Part shown: positions 1 to 51,091 of the stretch, one piece after another
Layout of the letters: the number at the start of each line of letters is the position of its first letter
Position numbering within the stretch: position 1 is the stretch's first letter
IMG/VR virus record: IMGVR_UViG_3300045988_175974
Source: a virus
Length of the DNA: 64,000 nucleotides
Reading direction: 5' to 3' (one strand)
Position numbers and translations under genes: made by a program
The notes under the pieces: generated by a model
Databases searched by the model: none
What the model was told of the DNA's origin: nothing
What the model saw: the letters and a program-made list of their open reading frames with translations, nothing else

Positions 1-3000
1 TGCGACAAACACGAACCTTTTAATACTCCGCTATCCGTGAGGCTCTTGTACGTGATGGTGTGAGAGTTCTTTGTGTCCGTTGCTGTACCGACTACGGTAA
101 ACAAATCATCTACACGGCATCCATTACGCTTGCTGGATGTATCTGAGTCGAACGTCCAGACTGTACCATACGTTCCTGCGTTATTCCATGTACTCTCATT
201 CCAATCAGTTTTGGTTATGCTGGTTACATTTCCTACGCCCTGCTTGCCTGTGTCTCCCTTCGGTGCTTTGTATGCCCACAGAGCTGGAGAAGACCATAAG
301 CCTTGCGAAACATTAGGCGTACCAACCTTACCCTCGTAATACGATACATAGACATAGCGGTTATCGTCTGTCGGAGATGGTGGGTCATCCACCCAGCCGC
401 TTGATAACTTGCCGTTGCTTCTCGATGGCTTGCTAGGTGGTGTGGAAGAGTTGGAGAGATAGAAGACGTACTCGTATCCGTCACCATCTACGCCAGAGAC
501 GTTTGGAAGAATGGTGAGAGTGATGGTATCAGAATAGCTGGCATTATCCAGTTTTCCGCTAACCTTCACCTTAACAACCTTGCTGCTTTTGCCCAGTGCA
601 TAACTCTTTGCATACGATACGTTGATAGTTGTGCCGCTGATACTTACGCCCGAAGGGAGACTATCGGCTGATACCGAGAGGCTAGAGCAAAGCTTGCCAT
701 CTACCACCAGCGTGCAGGATATAGCTTCGGAGAATGCAGCAAGGGAATTTCCTGCACTATCCGTAGGAATCGTCACGATATAATCTGACAGCGTAGCCTT
801 TGCTGCGTGCTTTCCGAAATGCGCATACTCGGCAGGTTCAGAAAATGCTCCCCAATGACCATTGACAGAAACTCGCTTGCTTACCCATTCGTACAGATTC
901 ACGGCATCCACACCAGTTGGGTCATCCGTCCAACCGCTAGGAACGTATTCCTTGTCGGTTCGTAGATACTCTGCATTCGTACTCCAATCGCTAGGAGTTG
1001 GGTTGCTTGGAGGAGTGGAATCCACCGTGCGCTTGAAGATATACTCGATACCCTTTCCATCCTTGCCGAAAGATACGATAGGAACCATCTCCTGATCGAG
1101 AAGTGAACCCTTGTTGTCATAAAGTGCAAAAGTGATTCGAGTGTGGTCGGTGGATGCTGTTGCGCTGCCGCCTAATGCCAATGCCGTATCAGCCGTATCT
1201 CCGTAGCCATATTTTAGCTGATAGCCCGAAGGAAGCGCTGAGAGTGCATATCTCTTGTCATCGCTCGATGTAGCATACACTTTACAGCTTACGCTACTAA
1301 CGTTTAGATTTCCATCCTTATCTACCACTACACTATCCACGGAAGGCACTACATCATAGACAATCATATCTGCCGAACGGAGAATAGTAAGTTCCTTGGT
1401 ATATTCATAGCTTACACCTGCATACACACCAACCACCGTGATAGGGATCTTGATAATCTGTTCGAGAATATCCGATGTGATATTGTCTGCATCAATCGTA
1501 ACCACTTTCTCCTTGTCCTGCAAGCTGACAGAAGCCTTCAAACCGTTTACCGCTCCTACGCTTAAATCGGAAATCTCCCAAGGAGTGTTCTGGTACATCA
1601 AACTTACCTTTGTTGTGATAGGCAGACCGATGTATTTTGCGGTCTTGGTGTTCCAGGCGATAGAAGCATTTTCGTTGCTCAAATCGCACACCATAAATGG
1701 TAGCGAGTCGTGATGAATGCGGACAGGGAACTCCAGGTTCTTTGTTACCTTGCCTTCCAGTTCTACCACGATAGTAATAGAACAGGCGGAAATCTTGCGC
1801 ATAGCATCGTAATCGAAGTCTGCATCATCAGCAGAGCCAGCTACACCATCCTTAATCTTATTAATGCCAGTAAGGAACACCGCACCATTCTCTACCTTTA
1901 CGTCACAACCGTTGCCGATTGCATATACACGATAATGCCCTGCGGTACATTCCATATTCTTCTCATCTTCGAGAAGAAGCAAATTCTCACCCTTATGAGC
2001 AAAGATAGCAGTGGAGATACGGTATTGCTTGACTCCTGCTTCATCGACCGACCACAGACCATTAATCACGTTGCCCAAATCATCCACCGTAATAACGGCG
2101 GCAGGCTGCGACATCGTGACATCATAGGCAGCTACATCGAGTTTCAGGCTATCCAAATCCTTAATCTGAGAGAGCGTAATCACGGCTCCACCGAGATACA
2201 CATTGTTCTGAGCAAAAAGACCATTACCCTTCAGGTTCTCCCAAGTGCCATCAGTCTTCTTCACTCGCAATCCTCCGAGCCAACCATATCTCGTTACTCG
2301 GTTTTCTGCCTGAATCTCCCAAGTATTCACGCCGTCGAGTACCTCGATGTAGCTTCTGCCGCGAGAGCAAAAGTACATACTGCTCTGTCGCTGCTCGTCC
2401 GTGAAGTTACCATATTGAGCGAAATCCATAAAGGCACAAGGATCAGGAGTTCCCTCGGAACGCTTACCGTACTCAAAGACAAACTTGCCTTTCTCTGCCG
2501 TGATAATCTTCTTGACGTAGAAATAGGTCGTGAAGAAACCTCGGTGCATAGTGAAACCGCATTCATCCATCTCACCCTCGTTGTTGGTATCAGAGCCGTA
2601 GGCATTCTCAATATCAGCATAGATACCTCGGCAAATATCACCTACGGACAGAGAACCGTAATCATTCTCTTCTAGTTTCAAATCGATGGTATGGTTGGTT
2701 ACGTCCACACTCTTGATAGTACCATAGCCGTTGGTGTTCCACTGCTCCGCTTTTGTAACGGAAATCTCATTGAAGACGAATTTCGGGGCAGAAATAAACT
2801 GTCGGGCAAAGATGGAATTGGCTTCCATATTGCCGTGCTCGTCAATCTGCGCTCCGTGGCCATACAAACCCTGCTCGAAATTATTGGTAAGGAACTTGAA
2901 TACCGAAAGAACACCTTCTCGTGTCCATTGTCCGGCATTATCGCCAATATCCATACCTGCCAGGAACTTCTGCACCTTTTCAAAGGTAATCGCGCCATGG

Positions 3001-3746
3001 GCTACATCATCCTTGTCTTTCGCCAGGAAATGCTTCACGCCAAACTGACCCAGATATAGAGGAGTAACCACCTTCGTGTTATCCGTCTCCAGGCTGAGAT
3101 CATTGGCTACGCCATTCAACTCGCTACCTCCGAGGGATAGCTTCGTGATTTTTGCAACCTTGGCAGTCAGCGTATCAAAGGTGGCAGAGAGGATGGTTTT
3201 GAGGAAGGAGATGGAATCGGTGACGGAATTATACTTCCACCAGGTGCCATCGATACCGCTCGAAAGGGATTCGTCGGTATTCAGTTTTCCACAATCCACG
3301 TGCTGGAGCCAGTCACGCTTGCGGGTCTTGCCATCTGCATCGGTTCTTACTTCAGAGATGATGCCCTGCAGATAGATGTAGTAGTATCTCTCGTCGCCTA
3401 CCAGCTTGTCGGGATTGGCGATGGAGTAGCCGTATAGATCGATGCGCTCGCTCGGATATACCACCACGGCGGTATTGTTGTCGGCGGTGCTCGTGCGGGG
3501 GATGGCTGCATAGATGTACTTCCGCTCGGAATCAGGGAAGACGGAAGGGTAGGCAGCAAGAGGCCAGCGCTGGTAGTTATGACCGGCATCGTACTCCAGA
3601 CCCGGAATGCCCTGCATATAGCAGAGGATGGATGCGCCGGAGACTACGCTACACTGAATGTAATCTGGCTCACCCATCGCATTAAGCTGGATGTAAAGCG
3701 CACTGCTCGAAATCCAATAATTCGTATTCTTTGCTTCTGTTGCCAT
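1..3746 (-). CDS. Large tail fibre / receptor-binding-type virion protein, cut by the window edge (>=1248 aa)
   Basis: ATG at 3746 (MATEAKNTNYWISSSALYIQLNAMGEPDY...). Hand translation of ~750 nt shows no stop. The ORF track lists no minus-strand ORF in this frame, as expected if it stays open to position 1. Plus-strand ORFs here are antisense shadows. Function is inferred from size and position only. Confidence 0.6.
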   Translation of the reverse strand, partial: MATEAKNTNYWISSSALYIQLNAMGEPDYIQCSVVSGASILCYMQGIPGLEYDAGHNYQRWPLAAYPSVFPDSERKYIYAAIPRTSTADNNTAVVVYPSERIDLYGYSIANPDKLVGDERYYYIYLQGIISEVRTDADGKTRKRDWLQHVDCGKLNTDESLSSGIDGTWWKYNSVTDSISFLKTILSATFDTLTAKVAKITKLSLGGSELNGVANDLSLETDNTKVVTPLYLGQFGVKHFLAKDKDDVAHGAITFEKVQKFLAGMDIGDNAGQWTREGVLSVFKFLTNNFEQGLYGHGAQIDEHGNMEANSIFARQFISAPKFVFNEISVTKAEQWNTNGYGTIKSVDVTNHTIDLKLEENDYGSLSVGDICRGIYADIENAYGSDTNNEGEMDECGFTMHRGFFTTYFYVKKIITAEKGKFVFEYGKRSEGTPDPCAFMDFAQYGNFTDEQRQSSMYFCSRGRSYIEVLDGVNTWEIQAENRVTRYGWLGGLRVKKTDGTWENLKGNGLFAQNNVYLGGAVITLSQIKDLDSLKLDVAAYDVTMSQPAAVITVDDLGNVINGLWSVDEAGVKQYRISTAIFAHKGENLLLLEDEKNMECTAGHYRVYAIGNGCDVKVENGAVFLTGINKIKDGVAGSADDADFDYDAMRKISACSITIVVELEGKVTKNLEFPVRIHHDSLPFMVCDLSNENASIAWNTKTAKYIGLPITTKVSLMYQNTPWEISDLSVGAVNGLKASVSLQDKEKVVTIDADNITSDILEQIIKIPITVVGVYAGVSYEYTKELTILRSADMIVYDVVPSVDSVVVDKDGNLNVSSVSCKVYATSSDDKRYALSALPSGYQLKYGYGDTADTALALGGSATASTDHTRITFALYDNKGSLLDQEMVPIVSFGKDGKGIEYIFKRTVDSTPPSNPTPSDWSTNAEYLRTDKEYVPSGWTDDPTGVDAVNLYEWVSKRVSVNGHWGAFSEPAEYAHFGKHAAKATLSDYIVTIPTDSAGNSLAAFSEAISCTLVVDGKLCSSLSVSADSLPSGVSISGTTINVSYAKSYALGKSSKVVKVKVSGKLDNASYSDTITLTILPNVSGVDGDGYEYVFYLSNSSTPPSKPSRSNGKLSSGWVDDPPSPTDDNRYVYVSYYEGKVGTPNVSQGLWSSPALWAYKAPKGDTGKQGVGNVTSITKTDWNESTWNNAGTYGTVWTFDSDTSSKRNGCRVDDLFTVVGTATDTKNSHTITYKSLTDSGVLKGSCLS

Positions 3747-3778
3747 TTTTTTGTTTGGATTTTTATTCATTTATAGGG

Positions 3779-3815
3779 CAAAGATAAAGGTTTTTGCGGT
3801 TTTAAGGGGGACAAA
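3779..3815 (-). promoter_or_regulatory. Late-type promoter P1 (tail fibre)
   Basis: Minus strand: TTTGTCCCCC-N20-TATCTTTG. The gap between TTTG and TAnnTTTG is exactly 25 nt. Confidence 0.7.
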
Positions 3816-3960
3816 AAAGCTTTTGCCCTTTCAGGGCGCATTGATGCTGCTGCCATTACCCAGGGTGTTACCCTGGGCTAGGAGCTGCTGCCCCTTCAGG
3901 GCGTATAGACGACGATAAGGGCAGCAGGGCGTATAGGCGATGATAGGACTGCAGGGCGTG
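3815..3960 (-). repeat. Triple-hairpin element, copy A (extended with extra CAGGGCGT units)
   Basis: AAAAGCTTTT + GCCCTttcAGGGC (3825-3837) ... CCCAGGGtgttaCCCTGGG (3859-3877) CTAGGAGCTGCTG ccccttcagggcg, then two or three further cagggcgt units up to 3960. Confidence 0.9.
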
Positions 3961-3964
3961 CTGG

Positions 3965-5014
3965 CTAGAGGTAGGGACTTCCGTTGATGTCGAGCTTGGC
4001 TGTGAAGGAAACAGAGTACATATTCTGCGTGGTATTATCGCTGATCGTTATCTCGTCCTCCTGGGTGATGGTGCAGGAGAGCCAGGTATCTTTTACCTTC
4101 AGCCAGACGTGCTCACTCATCAGAAACTCGTGAAGGTACCAGTAGAGCCAGGCGGTATCGAGGGGGTCGCTCTGATAAAGCCACGACTCACGGTTATTCT
4201 GCTTCTTGATAGCGGACCGGGAGAAGGTATTGAAGGTTTCCTGCACGGCTATTGTATAAGGGGTGGTTTCTACCGAAAGCTTCTTGCTGTAGGCTTTCGG
4301 GATATTGATGCTCTCCAGGCAGCCACGGGCATTGATGAAGCGGAAGGTACTGCGGGTTTCGGCTTCCGAGGATGGCAGAGCATAGAGGGCGTGACCGCCA
4401 ATAGTCTGCGAGCCTTCCTTTGTGATTTTCTGTTCGGAAGAGGTAGGAGCGGTGAGTGCGGTGCTGGATGCCAATATCTGTGAAGAGACATAGGAGACTG
4501 GGTAGGAGAAGGATTCGCCTACAACGGTGACTTCGGGGATAGAAGTTGGCTTTCGGGAGAAGTCTTTTACTGCTGGGGATGGATTGGATAGAATGCGCTC
4601 CATATCCGACATGGCTCCTGCTATGCAGCGAAGGTCAGTATCGGTACCTGCGACAGGCTTCTGGGGATAATAGACCTCGCCTACACCGGTATGCACTTCG
4701 CCGTTTTTGTTCATATACTCATCGTAGGCTTTTATGTACCATCTTACGAGCGGGAAGGTTTTTGTGGTGGCGGTGTACGGGAAATTGTCGAGAGGGATGC
4801 GGAGTGCAGAGGAGACATCCAGGGCTACGTTATTGCCTTCGGTGGTGACGGGTACCGTGAGCTTCACGGTTTCGTAGCTTCCTCCGTTATCAAAGTTTAC
4901 TTCTATGATGACACGGTGGAAGGAGGGGCTATCCAGCGTTTCGGGCTGGATGGTGAAGGTGATGGGGTTTCCGGCAAAAATGGAACCCGATGTGAGATTA
5001 ATTTTCTTTGCCAT
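3965..5014 (-). CDS. Hypothetical protein (349 aa), last gene of the KS-ACP operon
   Basis: Track ORF. Its ATG lies 1 nt after the ACP stop, so it is translationally coupled. No catalytic motif recognised. The C-terminus is beta-rich and aromatic-rich. Confidence 0.6.
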   Translation of the reverse strand: MAKKINLTSGSIFAGNPITFTIQPETLDSPSFHRVIIEVNFDNGGSYETVKLTVPVTTEGNNVALDVSSALRIPLDNFPYTATTKTFPLVRWYIKAYDEYMNKNGEVHTGVGEVYYPQKPVAGTDTDLRCIAGAMSDMERILSNPSPAVKDFSRKPTSIPEVTVVGESFSYPVSYVSSQILASSTALTAPTSSEQKITKEGSQTIGGHALYALPSSEAETRSTFRFINARGCLESINIPKAYSKKLSVETTPYTIAVQETFNTFSRSAIKKQNNRESWLYQSDPLDTAWLYWYLHEFLMSEHVWLKVKDTWLSCTITQEDEITISDNTTQNMYSVSFTAKLDINGSPYL

Positions 5015-5015
5015 A

Positions 5016-5261
5016 TTATTCTTTCTTTTTAATTACGAGATTGGCTATATCCGAAACAAGCTTGCAATCTTTCGCCTCTTCGGGGGTAATCTTGATGTGG
5101 AACATCATTTCTACCTGCTGAATGAGATCGAGGAAATCGATGGATTCTAGCTGAACCTCATCACGAAGATTGGAAGAGGGAGTTACCTCGTGGTTGACCC
5201 ATGAGGTTTTCAGTCTGTTTACGATGGCGATAATGCGAGGAGTTATTTCTTCTTTTTTCAT
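5016..5261 (-). CDS. Acyl carrier protein
   Basis: 81 aa and acidic. VQLESIDFLDLIQQVEMMF matches the ACP helix-2 phosphopantetheinyl-serine context (D/E-S-[LI]-D). It starts 2 nt after the KS stop. Confidence 0.8.
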   Translation of the reverse strand: MKKEEITPRIIAIVNRLKTSWVNHEVTPSSNLRDEVQLESIDFLDLIQQVEMMFHIKITPEEAKDCKLVSDIANLVIKKKE

Positions 5262-5263
5262 AA

Positions 5264-6466
5264 CTATGCTTTTGAGATGATAAAGGATGAATTGGTACCG
5301 CCAAAACCGAAGGCGTTACAGAGAATATGGTGAGGTGCATAGAGCTTCGGGCGCATCACCAGATTGAGGGATGGGAAGGCATTCTCCTCGGTCGTTACCG
5401 CGCCAAAGAGACTGCCGTAGGTGAGCATCATCACGGCTTGCACGGCTTGCGATACGCCTGCCATCCAACACTCATGACCGGTTAAGCCTTTCGTGGCTAC
5501 TACGTTCGGACAGATAGGAAAAATCCTTGTGATGGCGTTGGCTTCGGCTTCATCTCCCATTGGGGTACCGGTGGCGTGAGCGAGAACGACATCTATCATA
5601 CCTTCGTCCAATCCTGCGTTCTCAATGGCGTGAAGCATGGATACTTCCTCCTGATAGGTATCGGGGGTAGTGATGGCTTTTCCATTAGACGAGAAACCAT
5701 AGCCGGAAAGAGAAGCGAAGGAATGCACTTTCTCTTCTTTCAGACGAAAGCTATCCGATGGTTCGAGGATGATACAGGCTGCGCCACCTGATGGTGCCAA
5801 TCCGTTTCTACCTTTGCCAAACGGCTGCACCTTATCGGGTGAGAAGACACCGAGGGCATCGAATGCTTCCATGCAGTATTGAGATCCGCATTCCTGCGCG
5901 CCAATCACGATTACCATTTCCGTCTGCTTGCTATTGAGAAGCATCTTGGCAAGACCAATAGCGTGACCTCCTCCGGCACATGCTGCGCTTACGGTAAGCG
6001 ATAAGCCGTGGATATGAAGGATAGATGCCAGGTTCATACTGATAGTGGAGTTGAGCGAACGGAACAATGTTTCTACAGACAATGTTCTGTTATGTACTCC
6101 ATAGCCTATATGATTCACCACCGACCGACTTTCGTAGCATTCAGAATCATTACTTACGATAATAGACACGTTGTGATTTTCAAGAAAATCCTTACTAATT
6201 TTTGCTTCTTTTAAAGCTTCAAATACTGCATCGAGTACATAAAAGCCATGAAGGGGCAGGCATGCTCTCTGCGCACGAGTGAGAATTTCGTTATATTCTT
6301 CTACCCAAACAGGCACATTGCCGCATAAATCGGAATTGTATTTATCGCGGCATTCGTCGTGATGCAATCCGCATTTACCCTTATAAAGGTTCATGGCTAC
6401 TTCTCTGGTACTTCTGCCTAGGGCAGAATGAATACCTGTTCCGGTAATTAATATCTTTTTATCCAT
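5264..6466 (-). CDS. Beta-ketoacyl-ACP synthase, KAS I/II (FabB/FabF) type
   Basis: 400 aa. Active-site Cys in VSAACAGGGHAIG, His in LAHATGTPMGD, second His in KGLTGHECWMAG, and a C-terminal NAFGFGGTNSSFII. Confidence 0.9.
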   Translation of the reverse strand: MDKKILITGTGIHSALGRSTREVAMNLYKGKCGLHHDECRDKYNSDLCGNVPVWVEEYNEILTRAQRACLPLHGFYVLDAVFEALKEAKISKDFLENHNVSIIVSNDSECYESRSVVNHIGYGVHNRTLSVETLFRSLNSTISMNLASILHIHGLSLTVSAACAGGGHAIGLAKMLLNSKQTEMVIVIGAQECGSQYCMEAFDALGVFSPDKVQPFGKGRNGLAPSGGAACIILEPSDSFRLKEEKVHSFASLSGYGFSSNGKAITTPDTYQEEVSMLHAIENAGLDEGMIDVVLAHATGTPMGDEAEANAITRIFPICPNVVATKGLTGHECWMAGVSQAVQAVMMLTYGSLFGAVTTEENAFPSLNLVMRPKLYAPHHILCNAFGFGGTNSSFIISKA

Positions 6467-6509
6467 TTTATTATTCTTTTTATGTTATAAAACATATTTT
6501 TTTTATCTG

Positions 6510-6598
6510 AAAGCTTTTGCCCTTACAGGGCGACATAAACCACATTCCATATACCCAGGGTGTTGCCCTGGGCTAGGAGCTTCTGCCTTTACAGGGCG
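6510..6598 (-). repeat. Triple-hairpin element, copy B
   Basis: AAAGCTTTT + GCCCTtacAGGGC (6519-6531) ... CCCAGGGtgttgCCCTGGG (6554-6572) CTAGGAGCTTCTG cctttacagggcg. It overlaps the last codons of the 949-aa gene. Confidence 0.9.
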
Positions 6599-9438
6599 TA
6601 CACAGTTAACTCTACTTCGCCCATACCCGTCTTGGCATCAATGGTGGTATTCACCTTGTCAATGAGGCATTTCATACCGCCTATGTTCCACCAATCCTGC
6701 CAGTGATTCGGTATATCGGCAACTTGTGCTACGGTGGTGGTGCATCTTACCATGAACTTCTTTCTGTTCAGAAGGAAGTAGGCGTAGGGAAGAATGAAGG
6801 TGTCAAAGAGGCCGCGAGAGCGGATTTTAGTCACTACCTTGCCGTTCTCATCTACTTCATCGGCATTGCAGAGTACCAAATCCTTATACTTCGGATCTTT
6901 TAGCCACGATGGTTCCTTGAAGGCTCGTATCTTCAGAGAAAAACGCTCACCATCACCTACACCTTCCTGCACACCGTTATAATCAAACACGTTGCCCATC
7001 ATATCCAGCGAGTCGCAAGCTAGGGCATACTTACCCGATACGGTGCGCCATTTGGAGGTTCCGAAATGATCGTAGTTGTAATCGTAAGACTGTCGGGTAG
7101 CATCGCTACCACCGCCACGCATCAATGCAACCGCAAAGCCCCATCGTGAATCATCCTGCAACGGAGAATTGCCATCATCGGTATCCGACGGGTCGTAGCT
7201 TTCTACAAGCGATAGGGTTTGCTGCATATAAAAATCGCAGAAAGCAGTGGAAATAGTCTGATTGATAATCTGCTCAACAAACTCATGCTCCATATCCTCA
7301 TCTACATAAGCGCAGAGAATAGGCTGACTATCGGCAATGGTTACACCATATTTCTTGCCGTTATAGGAGTCGATTGCCTCGTGAGAGCCATAGGCAGCCT
7401 CTATCTCTTTGAAATAATTGACATCATTAAACGGAACAGGAGTAAAATCTACCGAAATATCGTGAACGAAATCTTCGTTTTCATCACTGCAATCTCCATA
7501 TTCCACACCCTTGAACTGGCCTACCTCAAAGAGTACCGGTTTCAAGTCGGCTGTCGTGGTTGCATCACTATTCACCTTTACGCGATAAGCGTTGCCAGTC
7601 TTGCGGTCGATATAGCAGTGCTTATCTCCACTACTCAGATTATGGAAGAAATCGATGTAGTCGAGATTATAGACGGTGGAGTTATCGCCACTATCAGGCG
7701 CAGGGTAATCGATGTAATCGTAATCGGTAGAATAACCCATATTCTTGTTTTTGCGGCTATCGAGCACATTCTGCCGCTGATCTTTTGCGTCGCTCTCTGC
7801 CGAATAGCGCATACGTACACCGGTAATCTTTTCGGTCATCGGGACCATGGAGTGGATATTGGCATGGAAAGTTCTCGCCTCGTTGCCGCTCTTGCGTAAC
7901 ACATCACGGGTAAGGTAAGCTGTTACCTTCTTCTGTTCGTAATCATACGAAAACTTGATACCAAAGGCGCTTTCAAGTGAAGAGATAACGGAACTTACGC
8001 TCTCATCAGGGAAATTGCCGCTGTTGGCTACCATATTGAGTACGTTTGCCTGCACCTTGAACTTGCTGATTTTTGCCTCGATGCTGATACCAGTGACCTT
8101 GCCGCCATCATCACGAACCTCGCCAACCTGTATATGCTCGGTGGTGCCTTCGGGTGTGTGGAGTGTTAATTCCTGCACGTCCTTATTCTCTGCCTTCACG
8201 ATGTTTATCTTTCCGCCGCAACCACGGCTTTCCAGCCATGAATTGATATGCTCCTGACTTTGAAAATAACCCGTCTTGATTTCGCCAGCTTTCTTCTTCT
8301 TGGCGATGACTTCGGCATCGTCTTTTCGATAATAAGTGCCATGGTGAGTGTGAAGACCAGGTTGTTTTGCACCCGTAGGGTCTTCCTCGTCGTACTGGTA
8401 GCTGACAGTATCGTAACTGCATACGGTCGTGAAGAAGCAGAGATGCTTCAAATCCTCTATCTCCATCAATGCCTTCTTGTCGAAAGTTACGCCCAGATAG
8501 GCAAAAAGGCAATCGAGGAAATAGAGCACATAGAAGCAGATACCCGACTGCGGACGTTTTGCATCCAATACCCAGTAAGGATAAAGGTCTTCGTTCGTCC
8601 AGGTGCAATCTTTTATGCTGATTACATCACTTGCGGTCTTTCCGTCATCATCTAACCCGTGATGCTTATAGCAGATACGAGCGTTACAATAGGTAGCGGC
8701 TCTGCCTGCACCATCTGTTTCACCATAAGCTGCTGCGGTATTGATATAATTGCCATTGCTGGCAATGACTGGCTCATTTACCTTGTGATTCTGAGGATAA
8801 GAACGCTCTGAAAGCTTCCGTGCATCACCCATATAATGCTGGGTAGATGTAGAAGTGTATTCATTGCAGCTTGCAGGGTAGGAAAAACCTAAGGCTTGCG
8901 GTTCCAAGACCTTGCTTACGCTTACATGGTCTGCCCTAATTTCGTGGTTTTCCGTATGATCATGCTTATGCTTGCCTCCAGTAACAAATACATCTACCTT
9001 TACTACCGGATCACTTTCAATATCCACCCTTACGTTTCCTATCTTCTCGCCGATGATAATCTGGTCCTTCACCGGAATATCTCGGCACTGCAGGTCGCTG
9101 ATAAGCTCGCTGAAACTCTGCGTGCTGGCATCGATATTCATGCTGAGTGAATTGGTTATTTCCTCACCATCCTGCATAACCAGGGTACCGCTGCGGAAAG
9201 GCAGTCCGTCGGCATTGATACGAGTAGGCAGGTGCTCCATGTTGACGGCTCTTACCGCCGCATGCACGTCCTCAATGTTCTTTACCAGCCAACGGTTGCC
9301 GTCTAGCGGAATGGAAAATGGATAGGAGAACATTTCCGTATCGTTGAATACCGGATTCTGATCCTCTATATCTATAGAGAAATCATCGGGCAGAGCCACC
9401 GGCTTATCTTTGATTAATATAGAGAGATGCGAGTTCAT
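6589..9438 (-). CDS. Large virion protein (949 aa), baseplate/tail-tip candidate
   Basis: Track ORF with a 4-nt ATGA overlap with the upstream gene. Function is inferred from size and position only. Confidence 0.5.
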   Translation of the reverse strand: MNSHLSILIKDKPVALPDDFSIDIEDQNPVFNDTEMFSYPFSIPLDGNRWLVKNIEDVHAAVRAVNMEHLPTRINADGLPFRSGTLVMQDGEEITNSLSMNIDASTQSFSELISDLQCRDIPVKDQIIIGEKIGNVRVDIESDPVVKVDVFVTGGKHKHDHTENHEIRADHVSVSKVLEPQALGFSYPASCNEYTSTSTQHYMGDARKLSERSYPQNHKVNEPVIASNGNYINTAAAYGETDGAGRAATYCNARICYKHHGLDDDGKTASDVISIKDCTWTNEDLYPYWVLDAKRPQSGICFYVLYFLDCLFAYLGVTFDKKALMEIEDLKHLCFFTTVCSYDTVSYQYDEEDPTGAKQPGLHTHHGTYYRKDDAEVIAKKKKAGEIKTGYFQSQEHINSWLESRGCGGKINIVKAENKDVQELTLHTPEGTTEHIQVGEVRDDGGKVTGISIEAKISKFKVQANVLNMVANSGNFPDESVSSVISSLESAFGIKFSYDYEQKKVTAYLTRDVLRKSGNEARTFHANIHSMVPMTEKITGVRMRYSAESDAKDQRQNVLDSRKNKNMGYSTDYDYIDYPAPDSGDNSTVYNLDYIDFFHNLSSGDKHCYIDRKTGNAYRVKVNSDATTTADLKPVLFEVGQFKGVEYGDCSDENEDFVHDISVDFTPVPFNDVNYFKEIEAAYGSHEAIDSYNGKKYGVTIADSQPILCAYVDEDMEHEFVEQIINQTISTAFCDFYMQQTLSLVESYDPSDTDDGNSPLQDDSRWGFAVALMRGGGSDATRQSYDYNYDHFGTSKWRTVSGKYALACDSLDMMGNVFDYNGVQEGVGDGERFSLKIRAFKEPSWLKDPKYKDLVLCNADEVDENGKVVTKIRSRGLFDTFILPYAYFLLNRKKFMVRCTTTVAQVADIPNHWQDWWNIGGMKCLIDKVNTTIDAKTGMGEVELTVYAL

Positions 9439-10088
9439 TTTCTGATTTCTATTTTTGCGTTATCGTATAAGTCTATGAGGCGATGGGTAAAGGTGTCGAT
9501 GAGCGCCGTACCAAAGGCATTGATTTTTTGGTGCCCATAGTCGTGAAGGGTGCCATCGGTAATGAAGACTACACTCTGGTCGTAGCTCTCTGCCTCGTTG
9601 CAAGTTACCATGTGGGCATAGTTTCGGGCGATGCCGTAACCTGCCTTGATGGTTGCCTTGCTGCCATTCAACAACTCTATCTTGCAGCCTTCATTCATTA
9701 CGAGGGCGGTAGCGGCATTATGGAGGATGACGTGCGCCTTACCAAGGACGTATATCTTTCGGGAAGAGTAGAGGTGGATTTCCTCGTCGGTATCACCCAC
9801 AAGGACGGTACCTGTAGGCGAGTCTTCATTATAGAAGATTCCACCCAGGTTAATATCTGCCTTAAACTCCGGATATACTGCCCTGAAAGCATCGATTACC
9901 TGCTGCGGTACCTCGGTGATTAAGCCGTGCCAATATTTGCGCCATGCCTCGCACATCTCGGGAATGCTCTGCGTGCTCTTGAAAGCATGCTGGGATTCCT
10001 GGCAGTTGCCACTCTGGGCAAGGATATGGACGCAAAGGGTCTTGAAACGCTGCGTGCGCTGTTCGGGGGTTTCTTTATTCTTTGTCAT
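9435..10088 (-). CDS. Hypothetical protein (217 aa)
   Basis: Track ORF on the coding strand, overlapping its neighbour by 4 nt. Confidence 0.55.
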   Translation of the reverse strand: MTKNKETPEQRTQRFKTLCVHILAQSGNCQESQHAFKSTQSIPEMCEAWRKYWHGLITEVPQQVIDAFRAVYPEFKADINLGGIFYNEDSPTGTVLVGDTDEEIHLYSSRKIYVLGKAHVILHNAATALVMNEGCKIELLNGSKATIKAGYGIARNYAHMVTCNEAESYDQSVVFITDGTLHDYGHQKINAFGTALIDTFTHRLIDLYDNAKIEIRK

Positions 10089-10092
10089 TTTT

Positions 10093-11208
10093 TTATGCTT
10101 CGGCTTCCTCTTTGGCTTCTTCTATAGTTTTTGTGAGAATAGCTTCATAGCCAGCAAGCTCCTCTTCGGTCACGATGTCAGAGTAATCCTGGCGAAGTTG
10201 GTCTATGCGCTCCTTGATGCCTTTCACTCTCGTCTGGGTAGATAGCTTATCCTTGCGAAGGATATACTTGATGCGGGCATCGGCTTCAGCCTTGTGCTTG
10301 GCGGCTGCATCACGGGCTGCTTTTACTTCCGGACGGTCGTTGGCAATCTTCTCGGCTACCTGCTCGGCAAAACGAGGGTCACGAGACAGCGCCTTCTCAA
10401 AGAATGGCTTAAACTGGGTGCGGAGAGTCTGAGGGTCGATGGTGAAGGCCTTCTTTGCGTAAGCGATGTATTCAGGGTCTCCAGTCTTCTCGCTCAGTCT
10501 CAGATAGCATTCGCCCATCTCTCTATCTACAGCCTTAAAGATTTCCGGAAGAATATCGCTTTCGATTTCTACGGCTCTTGTGGCTAGTTCGGCAATCTCA
10601 GCCTCGGTATAGATGGCGCTTTTACCCTGCGAGATAGCTTTCTCGTTGGCTTCTGCCATGGTCTTCGCATGCTCTGCCTTGCTTGCCATTTCACTACGGA
10701 GGTCACGCACGGTGTTCACCTGCTCCTGAAGGGCAGTAGAGAGGAACGGACGCAACTGCATCAGGTTGGGCATGGTAGCAGCGATACTTTCGCCGTTAGG
10801 GTTGGCTACGATACCATTATAGGTAAGCGGCTGTACGGTGGTGTCCGGTTTCAGATTAGGGAAGAGAGACTGCTTCGCCTCTTCCATGGCTTTCTTTTTC
10901 TGAAGTTCGGCATAGGCTTCCTGTTCCTGTTTGGTTGGGCGACCTACACGTCGCTTGTCGGCAGCAGATGATGATGCAGCGTTGGCTTGAGAGCTGCTGT
11001 AGCTATTCAGATAGGCGATCATCTGTCGGGTACGGCGATGATAGTCTTTAAACTTACGTGAGTTCTCGATAAACGAGTGTGCATTACTTGCACCTTCCAG
11101 GAGAGACAATCCCTGCTCATAGGCATCTTTCTGCTCCTGGGTAAGCATTCTTGCACCGATGGCAGGTTTCAAAATGTTGATGATTTCCTGTAATGATAAA
11201 TTTTCCAT
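10093..11208 (-). CDS. Hypothetical coiled-coil protein (371 aa)
   Basis: Track ORF with long Ala/Glu/Lys-rich helical segments. Confidence 0.55.
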   Translation of the reverse strand: MENLSLQEIINILKPAIGARMLTQEQKDAYEQGLSLLEGASNAHSFIENSRKFKDYHRRTRQMIAYLNSYSSSQANAASSSAADKRRVGRPTKQEQEAYAELQKKKAMEEAKQSLFPNLKPDTTVQPLTYNGIVANPNGESIAATMPNLMQLRPFLSTALQEQVNTVRDLRSEMASKAEHAKTMAEANEKAISQGKSAIYTEAEIAELATRAVEIESDILPEIFKAVDREMGECYLRLSEKTGDPEYIAYAKKAFTIDPQTLRTQFKPFFEKALSRDPRFAEQVAEKIANDRPEVKAARDAAAKHKAEADARIKYILRKDKLSTQTRVKGIKERIDQLRQDYSDIVTEEELAGYEAILTKTIEEAKEEAEA

Positions 11209-12440: not shown

Positions 12441-12473
12441 GCCCAGCGATAGAATCGCTGGGAACGGGGGCGG
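12441..12473 (-). repeat. Hairpin element copy 1
   Basis: Plus strand gCCCAGCGATagaATCGCTGGGaacgggggcggg. It starts right after the portal stop and lies 30 nt upstream of the ATG at 12411. Confidence 0.95.
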
Positions 12474-12474
12474 G

Positions 12475-14178
12475 TTAAGAGGCTTCTTGTTTCGCCACTC
12501 CGGTCTTCGAGTTATCGAGGGTGGTTAATACCTCTCGGTCTATCTGCCACACCAGGTGCTCGTCCCAATCGTTGAATCGGCTCAAAACTTCCAATGGGCG
12601 TATCATCAACTGCTGCAATGGGGCAAACTGAATCTGTTTTACCAGGAAACGTTCTCTCAGGTCGGTACCGCCCGATGATGCCGTATCGCCAGGAGTATTA
12701 CCGATGAGCTTTGCATCAAGACCCATGGCAAAGAAAATAATACTACTTATTTCCTGCAACTCGGTTTTGTCGGCATTCGCCTGATCATTTGCCTTGGTTT
12801 CGATTTCCACGATTTCCCAAGCTTTGTGCTCTTTCCCATCGCTGCCCGTGAAGGCAGAGGAAATGAGCGCCTGACCTGCATTATCGGGATTGGCGAGCCA
12901 TGTATTGATAGAGGTGAAGATTTCGTTCTGAATCTCACCATGGGTTTTCTTTTTCTTCTCACCCTGCTGCTGATAGAGCCTGCTAATATAGTCCTGGTGG
13001 ATATAGATGACACGACCGATGATGTTGCTGTTGCGCTTCCGGGTGAGGCGATCATCTACGATGGTGAAGGCATACTCAAAAATGCTGCCGGCAAAGATGG
13101 AGTGCCAAAGGGCATCGGCATAGTATGGACCGCCGAAATCTCTTGGTGACATGATGAAGCGGGTAGGGCGTTTCTTGCGGCTTACCTGCTTCTGACGTGC
13201 CTCACGGATATTGCGCTGCAAATCCTTTACGGCTGATGTGGTAGGGAGATAAGGGATAGCCGCTATCTTGCGGTCTTCCTCTTTCTGCACGCCGACGTAT
13301 TGGGTAGGGTCGAGCCACTGATTGCTGACGTAGGCATAGTTGATGCGGTAGTTCTCGTCCATGCGCTCCAGTCGGGTAGTGAAGATGCTGCGATGCTTCA
13401 GACCGATTACCTTCGGGGTCCATTGGGCAGTAGGAACAGCTTTGCCGCTTTCGTCGAGGGAACGCTGATTGAGCTGAAGTTCTACAAAGCATTGTGACAT
13501 CAAAGCCATATCTCCTGCCAAATCGAGGAAGGTCTGCATCAGGTCGTTGTTTTCGATGAAATCGCGAACCTGGGCATTGGTTTCTTCCCATTTGTGGAGG
13601 GCTTCTTTCAGAGATTTCATCTCCTCGCTTTCCTCTTCCTTGGCTTTCAGGTCAGCTATCTGACCACGGAGCAGGACTCCTGCACTCTCGTAGGGGATAT
13701 ATTTCTCTGTGATGTTGCCGCCAACGTACTGGGTGTAATGATACTTGGCTGCGGGACCGCGACCTACCAGTATTTTCTTGATGTAATCTACTCCTGCTGC
13801 TGTGAAAGGCGACATGCGCGAGAGCATCCAGATAAGGTTTGGCAGTCGGTTGGCCATACCCCATTCCATAAAGCCTAAGCCTTCGGTACCTACGCCTTTT
13901 GGTTTGCCCAGGTTCTCGCCGCCACTTGATGCAAAGATAGTGGAAACCTGCTGCCGTGCTGCGGAACCGCCTGCGTCGCCACCACTTGCCGACATACCGG
14001 CTGTGGTTAGGAGCATGCCGTGAACGTAGTCGTTCCAGGAAAAGACTTTACCGCCGCCATTTTTAAGCGGCGTAAAGGCATCCGGGCGAACGGCTACATA
14101 GCCTGCATCTTTCAGTTCCTCACTACGATTTTGGAGCTGCTGCAGGTTGGTTACTCTGTTTTTGTTTTTGCTTGCCAT
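12475..14178 (-). CDS. Portal protein candidate (567 aa)
   Basis: The size fits. It has its own late promoter. The C-terminal segment LIGNTPGDTASSGGTDLRERFLVKQIQFAPLQQ resembles portal wing/crown regions. Not verifiable without an HMM search. Confidence 0.5.
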   Translation of the reverse strand: MASKNKNRVTNLQQLQNRSEELKDAGYVAVRPDAFTPLKNGGGKVFSWNDYVHGMLLTTAGMSASGGDAGGSAARQQVSTIFASSGGENLGKPKGVGTEGLGFMEWGMANRLPNLIWMLSRMSPFTAAGVDYIKKILVGRGPAAKYHYTQYVGGNITEKYIPYESAGVLLRGQIADLKAKEEESEEMKSLKEALHKWEETNAQVRDFIENNDLMQTFLDLAGDMALMSQCFVELQLNQRSLDESGKAVPTAQWTPKVIGLKHRSIFTTRLERMDENYRINYAYVSNQWLDPTQYVGVQKEEDRKIAAIPYLPTTSAVKDLQRNIREARQKQVSRKKRPTRFIMSPRDFGGPYYADALWHSIFAGSIFEYAFTIVDDRLTRKRNSNIIGRVIYIHQDYISRLYQQQGEKKKKTHGEIQNEIFTSINTWLANPDNAGQALISSAFTGSDGKEHKAWEIVEIETKANDQANADKTELQEISSIIFFAMGLDAKLIGNTPGDTASSGGTDLRERFLVKQIQFAPLQQLMIRPLEVLSRFNDWDEHLVWQIDREVLTTLDNSKTGVAKQEAS

Positions 14179-14317: not shown

Positions 14318-14350
14318 GGGACCAGCGATAGAATCGCTGGGAACGGATGC
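14318..14350 (-). repeat. Hairpin element copy 2
   Basis: gggaCCAGCGATagaATCGCTGGgaacggatgc. It sits 12 nt upstream of the TTTG of the portal promoter. Confidence 0.95.
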
Positions 14351-14358
14351 TCCTCTTC

Positions 14359-14517
14359 TTATTCATAATTGATAATGATCATAAAATCCTTGGCGATGGA
14401 GGAAATAGCGTTACTGATACTTTCTCCGATTTCAAGCCTTTGGGAGTGAGGGTTGGAGTACCAATCACCATCGGCTCTGCCTCTGCTTGCGCAGGTTCTT
14501 ATTCGTATTGCTGCCAT
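14359..14517 (-). CDS. Small ORF (52 aa)
   Basis: Hand-translated (MAAIRIRTCASRGRADGDWYSNPHSQ...NYE*). It falls below the 60-aa cut-off of the track. Confidence 0.3.
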   Translation of the reverse strand: MAAIRIRTCASRGRADGDWYSNPHSQRLEIGESISNAISSIAKDFMIIINYE

Positions 14518-16990: not shown

Positions 16991-18097
16991 TTATTTCCCT
17001 CTCCTCATCTTTTCCATTTCCTCATTCTCTTTCGACAACCTTTCCAGGTGTTCGAGAACCAGGGAATAGGATTGAGTGTTGACCTGATCTTCTGTTAGGC
17101 CGGCATACTTTTGCATCGTAGCGGTGGTGGCGGTGTAGATTTCCATCGGGGTTTGCAGCTTCTTATTATCTACCTTCTGCACCTTGAATACATGAGGGTA
17201 GCGATGGGCTAGGGTGTGCATGATGCCACTCCACCAGAAGAGGATAACCTGCCAGTTGGCTTCCGGATATTTGACGAAATAACCTGCGTTCTCGGTAAAC
17301 TGCTTTGACTCGTAATGAAAATCGTATTTCGTGATGCCTGTTGTCGGGTCGACGTACTGGGTGGTGGTGTTGAAGATGGTGGCAAGGAACATGTTTCTGG
17401 CACTGGCTACACTCTGGGCTTGCGTCTGGAGTTGTTCCTCGGTGAACTTATTCATCTGCTTCATCTTTACCAGATTATTGCTTAACTTAGTGTAGGTCTG
17501 CATCATATCACTGGCAAAACGGTATTGCTGCCAGGAGAAGCCATCGAGGTCTTGGTGCGGACCTTGGAAGGCTTTTGCACGACGGTACCACTTGGTTTTC
17601 TGCCGGATAGATGGATAGGGGAAGCGGGTGAGGAAATTACCGCTATCTGCATCCAGCCAGTCGAGAAGACCTGCGCCCTGAGCGATGTACTCAGGGGAGG
17701 TCTTATCATCGGTCTTGGCTTTCGAGGAGAGCCAATAGTTGAGCTGCCAGAGATAGAGGGGGAAGGGGATAGCCGATTGGGTACCAGCGATAGAATCGCT
17801 GGGAACAGGGGTACAGATGGTGAGGAGCTTCTTCAGGAGGCTCTTCTTCTGCGGCTCTATGCTTACCAGGTAGTGCTGCTCATTGATGGGCAGACGAGGG
17901 TCGGGGTAGGCATTGATGCTTATCCCCGCAAAAAGGAAGAAAACGGCTATCTTCACCTTCTGCATATCGAAGGGGTGATAGCGGTCTGCCTTGGATTTCT
18001 CTATCTGCTCCAGCATGATGAGGGCAATCTGCTCTAGCTGGGAAGGGGTGCATTGGTTCCAGCCCTTTGGAATTGTAAGATTTATTTGTTCTTGCAT
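16991..18097 (-). CDS. Hypothetical protein (368 aa), carries an in-frame hairpin element
   Basis: Track ORF. Hairpin copy 3 is translated as TPVPSDSIAGT in mid-protein. Confidence 0.55.
   Translation of the reverse strand: MQEQINLTIPKGWNQCTPSQLEQIALIMLEQIEKSKADRYHPFDMQKVKIAVFFLFAGISINAYPDPRLPINEQHYLVSIEPQKKSLLKKLLTICTPVPSDSIAGTQSAIPFPLYLWQLNYWLSSKAKTDDKTSPEYIAQGAGLLDWLDADSGNFLTRFPYPSIRQKTKWYRRAKAFQGPHQDLDGFSWQQYRFASDMMQTYTKLSNNLVKMKQMNKFTEEQLQTQAQSVASARNMFLATIFNTTTQYVDPTTGITKYDFHYESKQFTENAGYFVKYPEANWQVILFWWSGIMHTLAHRYPHVFKVQKVDNKKLQTPMEIYTATTATMQKYAGLTEDQVNTQSYSLVLEHLERLSKENEEMEKMRRGK
17781..17811 (-). repeat. Hairpin element copy 3 (inside a CDS)
   Basis: gtaCCAGCGATagaATCGCTGGgaacagggg, translated as PVPSDSIAG. 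Confidence 0.95.
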
Positions 18098-18116
18098 ATT
18101 CTTAATTTTTAAAGGT

Positions 18117-18208
18117 AAAAAAGCTTTTGCCCTTACAGGGCGACTTACTGATTGCTATTATACCCAGGGTGCTGCCCTGGGCTAGGAGCTTCTGCCCTTT
18201 CAGGGCGT
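18117..18208 (-). repeat. Triple-hairpin element, copy C
   Basis: AAAAAAGCTTTT + GCCCTtacAGGGC (18129-18141) ... CCCAGGGtgctgCCCTGGG (18163-18181) CTAGGAGCTTCTG GCCCTttcAGGGC (18194-18206). Confidence 0.9.
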
Positions 18209-18240
18209 GTGGGGTTAAGGTTCTTTTTACCTTTTTACCT

Positions 18241-23725: not shown

Positions 23726-23760
23726 GGACCAGCGATGGAATCGCTGGGAACGGGGGCAGG
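23726..23760 (-). repeat. Hairpin element copy 4
   Basis: ggaCCAGCGATggaATCGCTGGgaacgggggcagg, directly after the capsid gene stop. Confidence 0.95.
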
Positions 23761-23768
23761 GGAGGGGG

Positions 23769-32705: not shown

Positions 32706-32834
32706 ACCTTACATATATTATATTATATAAAATCTGCTGCAAAGATACAAAAATAAATCGAAAATAGTATAGGTAAGCTATATAATATTTGAAATAAGTT
32801 ATATTTTTAACATTTAATATAGGTTTGAGAGGAA

Positions 32835-32868
32835 GAACCAGCGATGGAATTGCTGGGGACGGGGGCAC
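32835..32868 (-). repeat. Hairpin element copy 5
   Basis: gaaCCAGCGATggaATTGCTGGggacgggggcac (one C>T change in the 3' arm), ~130 nt upstream of the primase-like gene. Confidence 0.9.
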
Positions 32869-32870
32869 AG

Positions 32871-33440
32871 AGGGTGTTTTTCAAAAATGGACCAGTTTTT
32901 GACCATTTCCTTCAAAAAGTTCAAAAACGCATCAAAAAGTCCAAAAATCTAAGGGTAAACAGAAAAATGGGTTGGACCATGTTTTGTTAACAAATATAAA
33001 TTGACCATGCACAGACCTGTTATAGTCCGTTAAAAGGTGATTTTCTATTTTTGCCTAACTTCTGCTGAATCAGTCGATTTGCTACATTTAGATCAAAAAT
33101 TTATTGATTTTCTTCTACTCTATACGTAAGAAATGGTGAAAAAAAAATATTAGAAAAGAGATTTATACGCATTTTTCGCTATTTTTGGGGGATTTCGCTG
33201 CACAGTTGCCTTTCCCTATCCCAATCTAAGTACTTATCAGTCCGATGTTTACGGCAAAGCCGTTGATGCTACCAACTTCTCATTCGGGTTAAAGGGTTTT
33301 TACTTTTTAGGGGAATAAAAAATACACGAAAAATTTGTAGGGTAGTAGTGAAAACGGAGTAGTTTTTGAACTTTTTGCCCTAATTCACCCCTAAAAGTTC
33401 AAAAAATCAGGGAATTAGAGAGAAAAACACCTCAGACCGA
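32871..33440. other. Origin-like non-coding region (phased A-tract iterons plus an inverted repeat)
   Basis: No ORF across 32706-33543. Five [TA][TC]CAAAAA units start at 32880, 32911, 32920, 32931 and 32940. TGGACCA/TTGACCAT occurs four times. A 14-bp inverted repeat pairs GTTTTTGAACTTTT (33362-33375) with AAAAGTTCAAAAAA (33393-33406). Confidence 0.4.
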
Positions 33441-33449
33441 AAAATACGC

Positions 33450-33483
33450 AAAAAGGCTGCCTCGCTTCACAGCGAAACAGCCT
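33450..33483 (-). terminator. Intrinsic terminator after the tape measure gene
   Basis: Minus strand GGCTGTTTCGCTGTGAAGCGAGGCAGCC followed by TTTTTG. Confidence 0.75.
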
Positions 33484-33543
33484 CAATAAACAAATAGCTA
33501 ATTAAACTAAAAACTAATAACTAATAATCAACAAAACCTTCTT

Positions 33544-46350: not shown

Positions 46351-46380
46351 GGACCAGCGATAGAATCGCTGGGGACGGGA
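46351..46380 (-). repeat. Hairpin element copy 6
   Basis: ggaCCAGCGATagaATCGCTGGggacggga. It abuts the stop at 46381 and lies 49 nt upstream of the GNAT ATG. Confidence 0.95.
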
Positions 46381-50290: not shown

Positions 50291-50293
50291 ACG

Positions 50294-51088: not shown

Positions 51089-51091
51089 ACG

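Follow-up and report, generated by a model that had tools for sequence, protein, structure and literature searches.

Why should a bacteriophage carry genes for a ketosynthase (KS) and an acyl carrier protein (ACP) in the middle of its tail region? The question is raised by IMG/VR record IMGVR_UViG_3300045988_175974, a stretch of 64,000 nucleotides (nt), hereafter the window, from an uncultured phage of ~105 kb from human gut Bacteroidota. The whole region lies on the minus strand and is transcribed in the order p949, KS, ACP, p349 and a giant open reading frame (ORF) designated TF. An earlier, sequence-only reading of the window had treated KS, ACP and the 349-amino-acid (aa) ORF behind them as a single three-gene cassette delimited by copies of a structured repeat, and had proposed that the phage makes an acyl chain on its own carrier, perhaps for lipidation of a virion protein. 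We find that the unit is the KS-ACP pair, that p349 does not belong to it and that the repeat is not its boundary. On balance it is probable that KS and ACP form an auxiliary metabolic pair reliant on host AcpS, FabD and reductive enzymes; the pair appears to share its KS lineage with the KS-ACP pairs of Bacteroidota flexirubin and aryl-polyene (APE) clusters and to have been passed down within a large group of phages of the Bacteroidota type.

The ketosynthase and its carrier protein

In the KS, Pfam recognises the N- and C-terminal ketoacyl-synthase domains PF00109 (E = 1.5e-24) and PF02801 (E = 3.3e-19), each scoring above its gathering threshold; the protein aligns end to end with solved FabB structures (4xox, 1.4e-37; 1dd8, 3.2e-35). 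Cys163, His297, Lys326, His331 and the GFGG loop are in register with these two structures and are invariant among 19 diverse family members, and the alignment bears out the complete Cys-His-His set that had been described. A 'TGHECWM' motif following the second His marks a subfamily, in which 'GHECWMAG' replaces the 'GHxLGAAG' of FabB and FabF. The protein is thus predicted to be an elongating, FabB-like KS and to belong to a separate 'TGHECWM' subfamily. The label 'FabF/FabB-type' used previously holds at the level of the superfamily and no further, as the KS scores below every NCBIfam cut-off (top model FabB, 161.6 against 630 bits; FabF, 158 against 493.75 bits) and its nearest cellular relatives lie in APE and flexirubin clusters. 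No PHROG matched the KS at E <= 0.01, and a tblastn search of GenBank phages returned mostly host-like fab genes in poorly curated records and a single fecal contig at 37%.

The ACP likewise matches its profile above the cut-off (PF00550, 28.5 against 20.8 bits) and belongs to a phage family, phrog_5934, annotated as 'acyl carrier protein' and placed in the auxiliary metabolic gene class. The phosphopantetheine-site serine, Ser40, lies within 'LESIDF', and the carrier Ser is aligned in all of the phage and APE-cluster ACPs displayed, which confirms an ACP with an intact site. The protein falls below the NCBIfam cut-offs for ACPs (42 against 66 bits).

Distribution and selection

A scan of IMG/VR identified 244 contigs that encode a relative of the KS, and in gut metagenomes the KS is represented by more than 120 protein clusters at 91-100% identity, many of them on contigs of ~100-107 kb. 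The gene order p371-p217-p949-KS-ACP-p349-TF is the same across independent assemblies and was identical in 64 of 64 IMG/VR and metagenome loci with a KS of at least 59% identity. One of these relatives, IMGVR_UViG_3300030040_000151, is a complete genome of 106,503 bp with overlapping ends and a 95% identical KS. The phage is distant from cultured phages, its terminase being about 30% identical to that of Polaribacter phage Leef_1.

More distant phages hold the pair in other surroundings. Those of the broader family (KS 38-45% identical), which have homologous tape measure, primase, p295 and methylase genes, mostly carry it in the order ACP-KS between the tape measure and primase genes, while in two of their loci it lies downstream of a DNA methylase gene. 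In phages of 160-175 kb (KS 34-36% identical) the order is KS-ACP, amid replication and nucleotide-metabolism genes. Throughout the loci examined, to a KS identity as low as 34%, the two genes were nearly always direct neighbours, whichever came first, and the pair travels as a unit among phages. In nine distant-phage loci, Pfam detected no lipid-related partners among the neighbours of KS-ACP. Genes near the pair in distant phages of 100-175 kb (L084, L085, L073-L083 and L007) include those for a Tad2-like anti-Thoeris domain, NAPRTase/NAMPT and MazG, with clamp loader, gyrase B and endonuclease VII genes also within about 6 kb, so that the neighbourhood is one of metabolic and counter-defence genes. 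In the window itself, the junction between the tape measure and primase genes is an 840-nt non-coding gap (32706-33543) in which TTTTTGAACTTTT-like motifs recur and which may be an origin or regulatory region; no relic of KS or ACP was found in it.

Both genes are under purifying selection, as are their neighbours. The ratio of nonsynonymous to synonymous divergence (dN/dS) against relatives is 0.085 for KS and 0.12 for ACP, compared with 0.08 for p217 and 0.10 for p371.

Extent of the insertion

The ORF p349 does follow KS and ACP, and the gaps of 2 nt (KS to ACP) and 1 nt (ACP to p349) are as had been stated. The proposal that the three genes form one cassette fails, however, on the distribution of p349. 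Its homologues form a large family of about 340-370 aa and occur in L079, L499 and L500, where KS-ACP lies elsewhere or is not found between p949 and p349. L499 reads p217-p949-p349-TF; its p949 and p349 are 15 nt apart and KS-ACP is missing, which makes this an 'empty site'. Homologues of p949 match at E = 1e-252 in L499 and 1e-262 in L500. The p349 homologue of L079 is ~7 kb distant from ACP-KS. Because L499 lacks the pair between p949 and p349 and the p349 of L079 lies apart, KS-ACP is a two-gene insertion in the tail-region operon, the downstream edge of which is the 1-nt junction of ACP and p349. The empty site in L499 and the occurrence of the pair at the tape-measure/primase junction in distant relatives provide the presence and absence expected of an inserted module. 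As for bracketing signals, there is no repeat at the ACP/p349 junction, some relatives have only 17-19 nt between p949 and KS, and a consensus scan, which does not cover Bacteroidetes-type promoters, gave no terminator.

The predicted structure of p349 points in the same direction. A model built from 25 close sequences reached a mean per-residue confidence (pLDDT) of 51, and an AlphaFold2 model built from a 63-sequence alignment reached 90.3, with a predicted template-modelling score (pTM) of 0.84. The latter model is all-beta and matches many uncharacterised phage proteins in BFVD (E = 1e-16 to 1e-9), among them a Cellulophaga phage phiST 'structural protein' and proteins of Flavobacterium, Nonlabens and Polaribacter phages; matches in the PDB are weak and are Ig-like or tail-tube-like. 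No enzyme fold appears among the PDB and BFVD structure matches, and sequence searches with p349 (PHROGs, Pfam, NCBIfam and PDB) were uninformative. We regard p349 (dN/dS 0.19 against relatives) as a predicted structural protein of Bacteroidota phages. It is probably co-transcribed with ACP, given the 1-nt gap, yet is probably not a functional partner of KS-ACP; as an enzyme partner it was rejected, on account of its non-enzyme fold and its occurrence apart from the pair. In this lineage KS and ACP are probably transcribed together with both p949 and p349.

The flanking repeat

The repeat, which we designate D3, is a multi-hairpin element of ~95 nt. Between a small left hairpin, CGCCCTG-N-AAGGGCA, and its right-hand copy, after which comes AAAAGCTTTT, lie a central 7-bp hairpin that does not vary (CCCAGGG-loop-CCCTGGG) and then ~20 variable nt. 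Copies lie on both sides of the KS-ACP-p349 region, as had been reported, but a third copy sits in an unrelated intergenic gap (Table 1), so D3 is not specific to the cassette. The further suggestion that it marks a moron or recombination boundary does not survive comparison with relatives. Among 61 relatives with the same gene order, D3 is found before KS only in 20, after p349 only in 6, at both sites in 3 (and in the window) and at neither in 32. Other relatives have, at the same junctions, a CCCAGCGATTCTATCGCTGGG hairpin with a T-run, (AAAGGTAAA)n arrays or another palindromic element, and no repeat occurs at the true edge between ACP and p349. This polymorphism, and the position of the downstream copy beyond p349 and hence outside the insert, rule out D3 as a cassette boundary. 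The bracketing is a coincidence of two intergenic hot spots, and D3 is an independent, lineage-specific, polymorphic element.

In all, 113 copies of D3 (46 unique sequences) were found at several sites, about 1-3 per genome and exclusively intergenic. The exact core motif is present in 50 stretches of IMG/VR, which with few exceptions belong to this phage lineage, and a search of GenBank phage DNA with the region found D3 (~90 nt) as the sole match, in six unannotated fecal contigs. Where D3 is present the p949-KS gap is 120-205 nt, compared with mostly 17-87 nt where it is absent. At this site the p949 stop codon lies inside the first D3 hairpin (TACGCCCTGTAA); relatives without D3 end p949 with TATGCTTTATAA, which encodes the same Tyr-Ala-Leu. 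The ends of D3 are direct copies of the small hairpin (CGCCCTGNAAGGGCA), and L030 retains one fused hairpin, which suggests gain or loss of D3 by recombination between the direct ends.

D3 resembles the short, hairpin-rich intergenic repeats of phages that are likened to repetitive extragenic palindromes (REP), to miniature inverted-repeat transposable elements (MITE) or to terminators, and it shares their presence/absence polymorphism. As a mobile miniature element it is multicopy and polymorphic, but inverted terminal repeats, a target-site duplication and a transposase were not seen. As RNA it folds somewhat better than shuffled sequence (z-scores of -2.0 to -3.1). It is not a canonical intrinsic terminator, a simple terminator scan having given none at the repeats, and neither D3 nor the window has an Rfam match; a tRNA scan of the window was also empty.

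Cellular relatives and origin of the ketosynthase

In a scan of one genome per species, covering 185,579 species, no KS exceeded 41% identity to that of the phage. The nearest cellular KSs, at 35-41%, are nearly all from Bacteroidota (Chryseobacterium, Flavobacterium, Dyadobacter, Chitinophagaceae, Alistipes, Prevotella, Bacteroides fragilis and Bacteroidaceae). The cluster in which they lie recurs from genome to genome, and an ACP is usually adjacent to the KS or not far from it. In one Dyadobacter locus (L109) Pfam gives the order aromatic-amino-acid lyase, ketoreductase, KS, ACP, lipid-A-type acyltransferase and 4HBT thioesterase, continuing with a KS-like protein, ACP, KS and a protein like the chain-length factor (CLF); the assignment of the second of these ACPs comes not from Pfam but from a phmmer match between the phage ACP and its counterpart in L114, the neighbouring Dyadobacter locus. 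From its gene content, L109 is predicted to be a flexirubin/aryl-polyene type II polyketide synthase (PKS) cluster. A metagenome relative (L010) is similarly surrounded by ApeP-like, ApeI-like, MMPL, ketoreductase, LolA and thioesterase genes. The closest cellular relatives of the phage KS are therefore KSs of APE and flexirubin clusters, which share its TGHECWM motif.

Placement of the KS in a phylogeny, as the sequence-only reading had suggested, gave one phage clade that groups with the pigment-cluster KSs and apart from FabB. In the neighbour-joining tree the phage KSs are monophyletic in 83 of 100 bootstraps, and a 'HECWM' superclade of phage and cluster KSs splits from FabB in 85 of 100. 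The phage KS is likely, though not proven, to derive from the APE/flexirubin pathway lineage.

Partner enzymes

The sequence-only reading had seen no acyltransferase, reductase, dehydratase, thioesterase or phosphopantetheinyl transferase (PPTase) in the window. Our Pfam scan covered 65 window ORFs (E <= 1e-3 or 1e-2), the partial downstream ORF TF and ORFs under 45 aa being left aside, and found no FabD-type acyltransferase, ketoreductase, dehydratase, enoyl reductase, thioesterase or PPTase. The statement is therefore upheld for enzymes of the fatty-acid synthase (FAS) and PKS type; it does not hold for acyltransferases at large, since the window encodes two GNAT acetyltransferases. Nor did Pfam detect FAS or PKS domains in the 40 ORFs of the other 43 kb of the complete relative. 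The partners of an APE cluster (aryl-starter enzymes, ketoreductase, ApeI/P dehydratases, KS-CLF, thioesterase, acyltransferase and exporter) were found neither in the window or complete relative nor beside the pair in the nine distant-phage loci.

Because the phage encodes no PPTase, as judged by Pfam in the window and in the rest of the related complete genome, host AcpS would be needed for holo-ACP. APE clusters contain a FabB-like homodimeric KS, ApeR, of which structure 4EWG is a homologue, and their reconstitution in vitro loads malonate by means of the fatty-acid enzyme FabD (PMC8358021). Since APE clusters borrow FabD in this way (PMC8358021), the missing acyltransferase and PPTase appear to be a trait of the family and not an oddity of the phage.

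Proposed role and alternatives

We infer the following course for every biochemical step, for substrate and product and for the benefit to the phage. Host AcpS would place phosphopantetheine on Ser40 of the phage ACP, and host FabD would load malonate onto this carrier. The phage KS, probably a homodimer, would accept an acyl primer on Cys163 and carry out the condensation with malonyl-ACP, after which host ketoreductase and dehydratase, from fatty-acid synthesis or from a host aryl-polyene cluster, would complete the cycles. The phage's own contribution would be the committed condensing step together with a private carrier, and more, or redirected, acyl or polyenoyl chains would be made in the infected cell.

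Several observations weigh against this proposal. Substrate and product cannot be read from the genes, and the host, known as Bacteroidota-type only, may or may not carry an APE cluster. Recognition of the phage ACP by host AcpS and FabD is not guaranteed, and the ACP is only weakly acidic, with a net charge of about -2 by manual count. The phage KS is divergent, scoring 161 bits on the FabB model compared with 335-420 for six KSs of the same subfamily with no phage context in evidence, and such divergence may possibly reflect a changed or non-canonical activity. It also scores higher against solved FabBs (124-133 bits) than against 4EWG (82 bits), although this comparator is a proteobacterial ApeR homologue and not one from Bacteroidota. 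In the tree, the phage clade stands beside the Bacteroidota APE clade as its sister and does not fall inside it. Finally, the timing of expression appears to differ by lineage, with the pair in a late tail operon here and in a replication-gene setting elsewhere, which blurs the selective benefit.

Two versions of the auxiliary-pair proposal can be distinguished. It is possible, though less likely than not, that the pair joins an aryl-polyene or flexirubin-like pathway of the host, adding to or replacing its FabB-like KS and ACP. The nearest cellular homologues are APE/flexirubin KS-ACP pairs, many with KS followed directly by ACP, and gut Bacteroidales carry such KSs. On the other hand, identity is no higher than 35-41%, the phage clade takes a sister position to the APE clade instead of a nested one, no further APE gene was seen in any phage locus examined, and the host itself may lack an APE cluster. 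A possible outcome, put forward with similar caution, is that infected or lysogenic cells would make polyene lipid for the outer membrane in larger amounts or in altered form, with tolerance of oxidative stress or a changed surface. APEs have an antioxidant role. The ParA, Rep3 and Cro/C1-type helix-turn-helix (HTH) proteins of the complete relative hint at long-term carriage, and gut phages have been reported with genes for tolerance of reactive oxygen species (PMC8008677).

It is rather unlikely, but conceivable, that the pair instead boosts type II fatty-acid synthesis, sustaining the supply of membrane lipid during infection. Among solved structures FabB and FabF match best, and of the NCBIfam models FabB scores highest; the PHROG family of phage ACPs is assigned to the auxiliary metabolic genes, and predicted roseobacter prophages have been reported with fabG-acpP-fabF (PMC8224337). 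However, the KS is not closest to housekeeping FabF, scores far below the curated cut-offs and groups with KSs of pigment clusters. Housekeeping fatty-acid synthesis in Bacteroidota, moreover, is known to use FabF and is not known to use a FabB-type enzyme. Within the general proposal we slightly favour a contribution to aryl-polyene synthesis, to which the homology points, and place fatty-acid supply, suggested by the FabB-like features, second.

A non-metabolic role seems improbable. The pair would then be a counter-defence factor, or would inhibit host enzymes that depend on ACP or serve them as a decoy, with catalysis secondary. The neighbours in distant phages (the Tad2-like anti-Thoeris domain, NAPRTase and MazG) and the atypically non-acidic ACP are compatible with such a role, but the catalytic set and the carrier Ser are strictly conserved over deep divergence and KS is constantly paired with ACP. 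More improbable still is the lipidation of a virion or tail protein by an acyl chain held on the phage's own carrier, with p349 as transferase or acceptor. The position of the pair inside a tail-region operon, 1 nt from p349 and near a giant fibre-like ORF, speaks for it. However, the link to the tail is lineage-specific, since in distant relatives the pair adjoins replication and nucleotide-metabolism genes; the fold of p349 is unlike that of an enzyme and finds its matches among structural proteins of phages, p349 and p949 exist without an intervening KS-ACP, and no protein acyltransferase of the HlyC or Lgt/Lnt type was among the Pfam results for the window and the complete relative. That these are host fab genes included through misassembly or a wrongly placed prophage boundary can virtually be ruled out, given the identical order in 64 of 64 loci from independent samples and assemblers, the many ~100-kb viral contigs, the one complete relative, the phage-specific KS clade and a best bacterial identity of 41% among 185,579 species.

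Neighbouring genes and other features of the window

The placement of KS-ACP between a 949-aa protein and a very large ORF was correctly described in the sequence-only reading, but the names 'virion protein' and 'tail-fibre' given to these two have no support from homology. The protein p949 had zero matches in Pfam, PHROGs, NCBIfam and PDB sequence searches. TF matched only PHROGs families without an assigned function, and Pfam, NCBIfam and PDB were uninformative; it is presumed to be a tail fibre or receptor-binding protein from its size, position and variability in length. A conserved Bacteroidetes-type -7 box, TAtcTTTG, precedes it at 3786-3779.

Table 1. Positions of the genes and repeats discussed, in window coordinates.
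Feature	Position	Strand	Description
p949	6589-9438	-	949 aa; large, conserved; upstream of KS; dN/dS 0.05
KS	5264-6466	-	400 aa; ketosynthase, PF00109 and PF02801
ACP	5016-5261	-	81 aa; acyl carrier protein, PF00550 and phrog_5934
p349	3965-5014	-	349 aa; conserved, predicted all-beta structural (tail-region) protein (AlphaFold2 model, BFVD matches)
TF	1-3770	-	N-terminal part, at least 1248-1256 aa; runs off the window start; start codon at 3770 or 3746
D3 copy	6500-6598	-	~95-nt multi-hairpin repeat at the p949/KS junction; RNA fold z-score -2.0
D3 copy	3815-3918	-	p349/TF junction; fold z-score -3.1; present at this junction in 9 of 61 relatives
D3 copy	18115-18210	-	unrelated intergenic gap; fold z-score -2.6
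28-nt tandem repeat	3897-3959	-	2.3 copies, from the left end of D3 (TACGCCCTG...); 1-4 copies in relatives (L016, L014, L042)
CCCAGCGATTCTATCGCTGGG hairpins	12441-12480, 14320-14359, 17782-17821, 23727-23766, 32836-32875, 46352-46391, 54202-54241, 56123-56162, 56932-56971, 59153-59192, 63748-63787		intergenic

TF is 1925-2311 aa long in near relatives and variable in length across other loci, and even close relatives differ (e.g., 1925 and 2310 aa). In a comparison of window positions 1-11208 with relatives L001-L071, synonymous divergence climbs towards TF, from 0.35 in p371, 0.42 in p217 and 0.73 in p949 to 1.04 in KS, 1.02 in ACP and 1.30 in p349. The gradient and the changes in TF length fit a hot spot of recombination or diversification at the receptor-binding end. 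The first 433 aa of the gene after TF are 96% identical in a different and very abundant phage group (L001:19903-21201 and L172:10001-11620), where a neighbouring gene on the contig has more than 600 matching IMG/VR stretches; the shared segment looks like the exchange of a tail-fibre module between unrelated gut phages.

The second hairpin family of Table 1, with 11 copies in the window, has the coding-strand sequence CCCAGCGATTCTATCGCTGGG, often followed by a T-run, and is terminator-like. Elsewhere in the window, Pfam matches include a C5 methylase, head protease, tape measure protein, primase, DNA polymerase III beta subunit, GH108 lysin and holin, as well as ThyX, guanylate kinase, an N6/N4 DNA methylase and a LysR-type regulator (HTH_1 and LysR_substrate), the last of which is, to our knowledge, unusual in a phage. 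A block of low GC content (0.385-0.41) at 48616-52761, about 43 kb from the KS, contains two radical-SAM ORFs (49313-50290 and 52144-52761), one of the two GNAT acetyltransferases (51563-52132) and a repeated gene-start motif at 50279, 51077 and 52121. The block is a candidate for a small gene cluster with a modifying or biosynthetic function. In the complete relative, the 43 kb beyond the window encode ParA, Rep3_C, a Cro/C1 HTH, DUF4942 and an exonuclease. The ParA-type ATPase (AAA_31/CbiA), the Rep3_C initiator-like domain and the Cro/C1 HTH (L447 and L381, at ~2.2-38 kb of that genome) suggest plasmid-like maintenance or a temperate, extrachromosomal lifestyle.

Comparison with known systems

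Auxiliary metabolic genes of phages, and phage ACPs (PHROG 5934), are known; what is new is a pair from the KS lineage of type II PKS pigment clusters that would have resided in phages for a long time. In the literature searched, such a phage KS is nowhere described, and the study that named the gut phage families Flandersviridae, Quimbyviridae and Gratiaviridae mentions no acyl, ketoacyl or ACP genes (PMC8008677). Retention across a deep phage clade, strong purifying selection and kinship with pigment clusters rather than with housekeeping enzymes set the pair apart from the usual auxiliary genes. It may be, although we would not put the chances high, that a large and abundant group of Bacteroidota phages, ~100-kb phages of the human gut among them, has long carried a component of an aryl-polyene/flexirubin-like type II PKS pathway and reprograms the synthesis of outer-membrane polyene lipids. 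If so, it would mark the first case of a virus manipulating a type II PKS pigment pathway, with protection from oxidative stress or a remodelled surface as possible benefits to the cell, whether infected or a carrier. Human gut metagenomes commonly contain this phage lineage, and the pair, if active, could alter membrane or outer-membrane lipid chemistry in gut Bacteroidales, with possible effects on stress tolerance, cell surface and interaction with the host. As a minimal, natural 'orphan' KS-ACP pair it also offers a model for enzymes that borrow their partners. The outcome for D3, in turn, removes a tempting but wrong inference, namely that flanking repeats mark a mobile cassette.

Three known systems invite comparison. 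The pair resembles the KS-ACP of Bacteroidota APE and flexirubin clusters in sequence (35-41% identity), in the 'TGHECWM' motif and the Cys-His-His-Lys set, in the frequent position of the cluster KS before or near a small ACP with a (D/E)S(L/I)D motif, and in having no dedicated malonyl transferase or PPTase, the family borrowing FabD (PMC8358021). It differs from these clusters in comprising two genes only, with no lyase or ligase, ketoreductase, ApeI/P, KS-CLF, thioesterase, acyltransferase or LolA/MMPL exporter, and in a KS that is strongly diverged, forms a phage-specific clade and is closer to solved FabB than to the solved ApeR homologue 4EWG. With FabB and FabF (beta-ketoacyl-ACP synthases I and II) the phage KS shares fold, catalytic residues and length (best PDB matches, 1e-37 to 1e-27); unlike FabB/FabF and AcpP, the pair fails the curated cut-offs, has 'GHECWMAG', lies outside a fab operon and includes an ACP that is not strongly acidic. 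Lipid-metabolism genes of other phages, such as the fabG-acpP-fabF of predicted roseobacter prophages and the cyanophage lipid desaturases cited in the same study (PMC8224337), are, like the KS-ACP pair, host-derived and reliant on the remainder of a host pathway. The KS described here differs from them in having no PHROG, in belonging to an old, monophyletic phage clade instead of being copied recently from a host operon, and in having its kin in pigment and polyketide pathways and not in the housekeeping operon.

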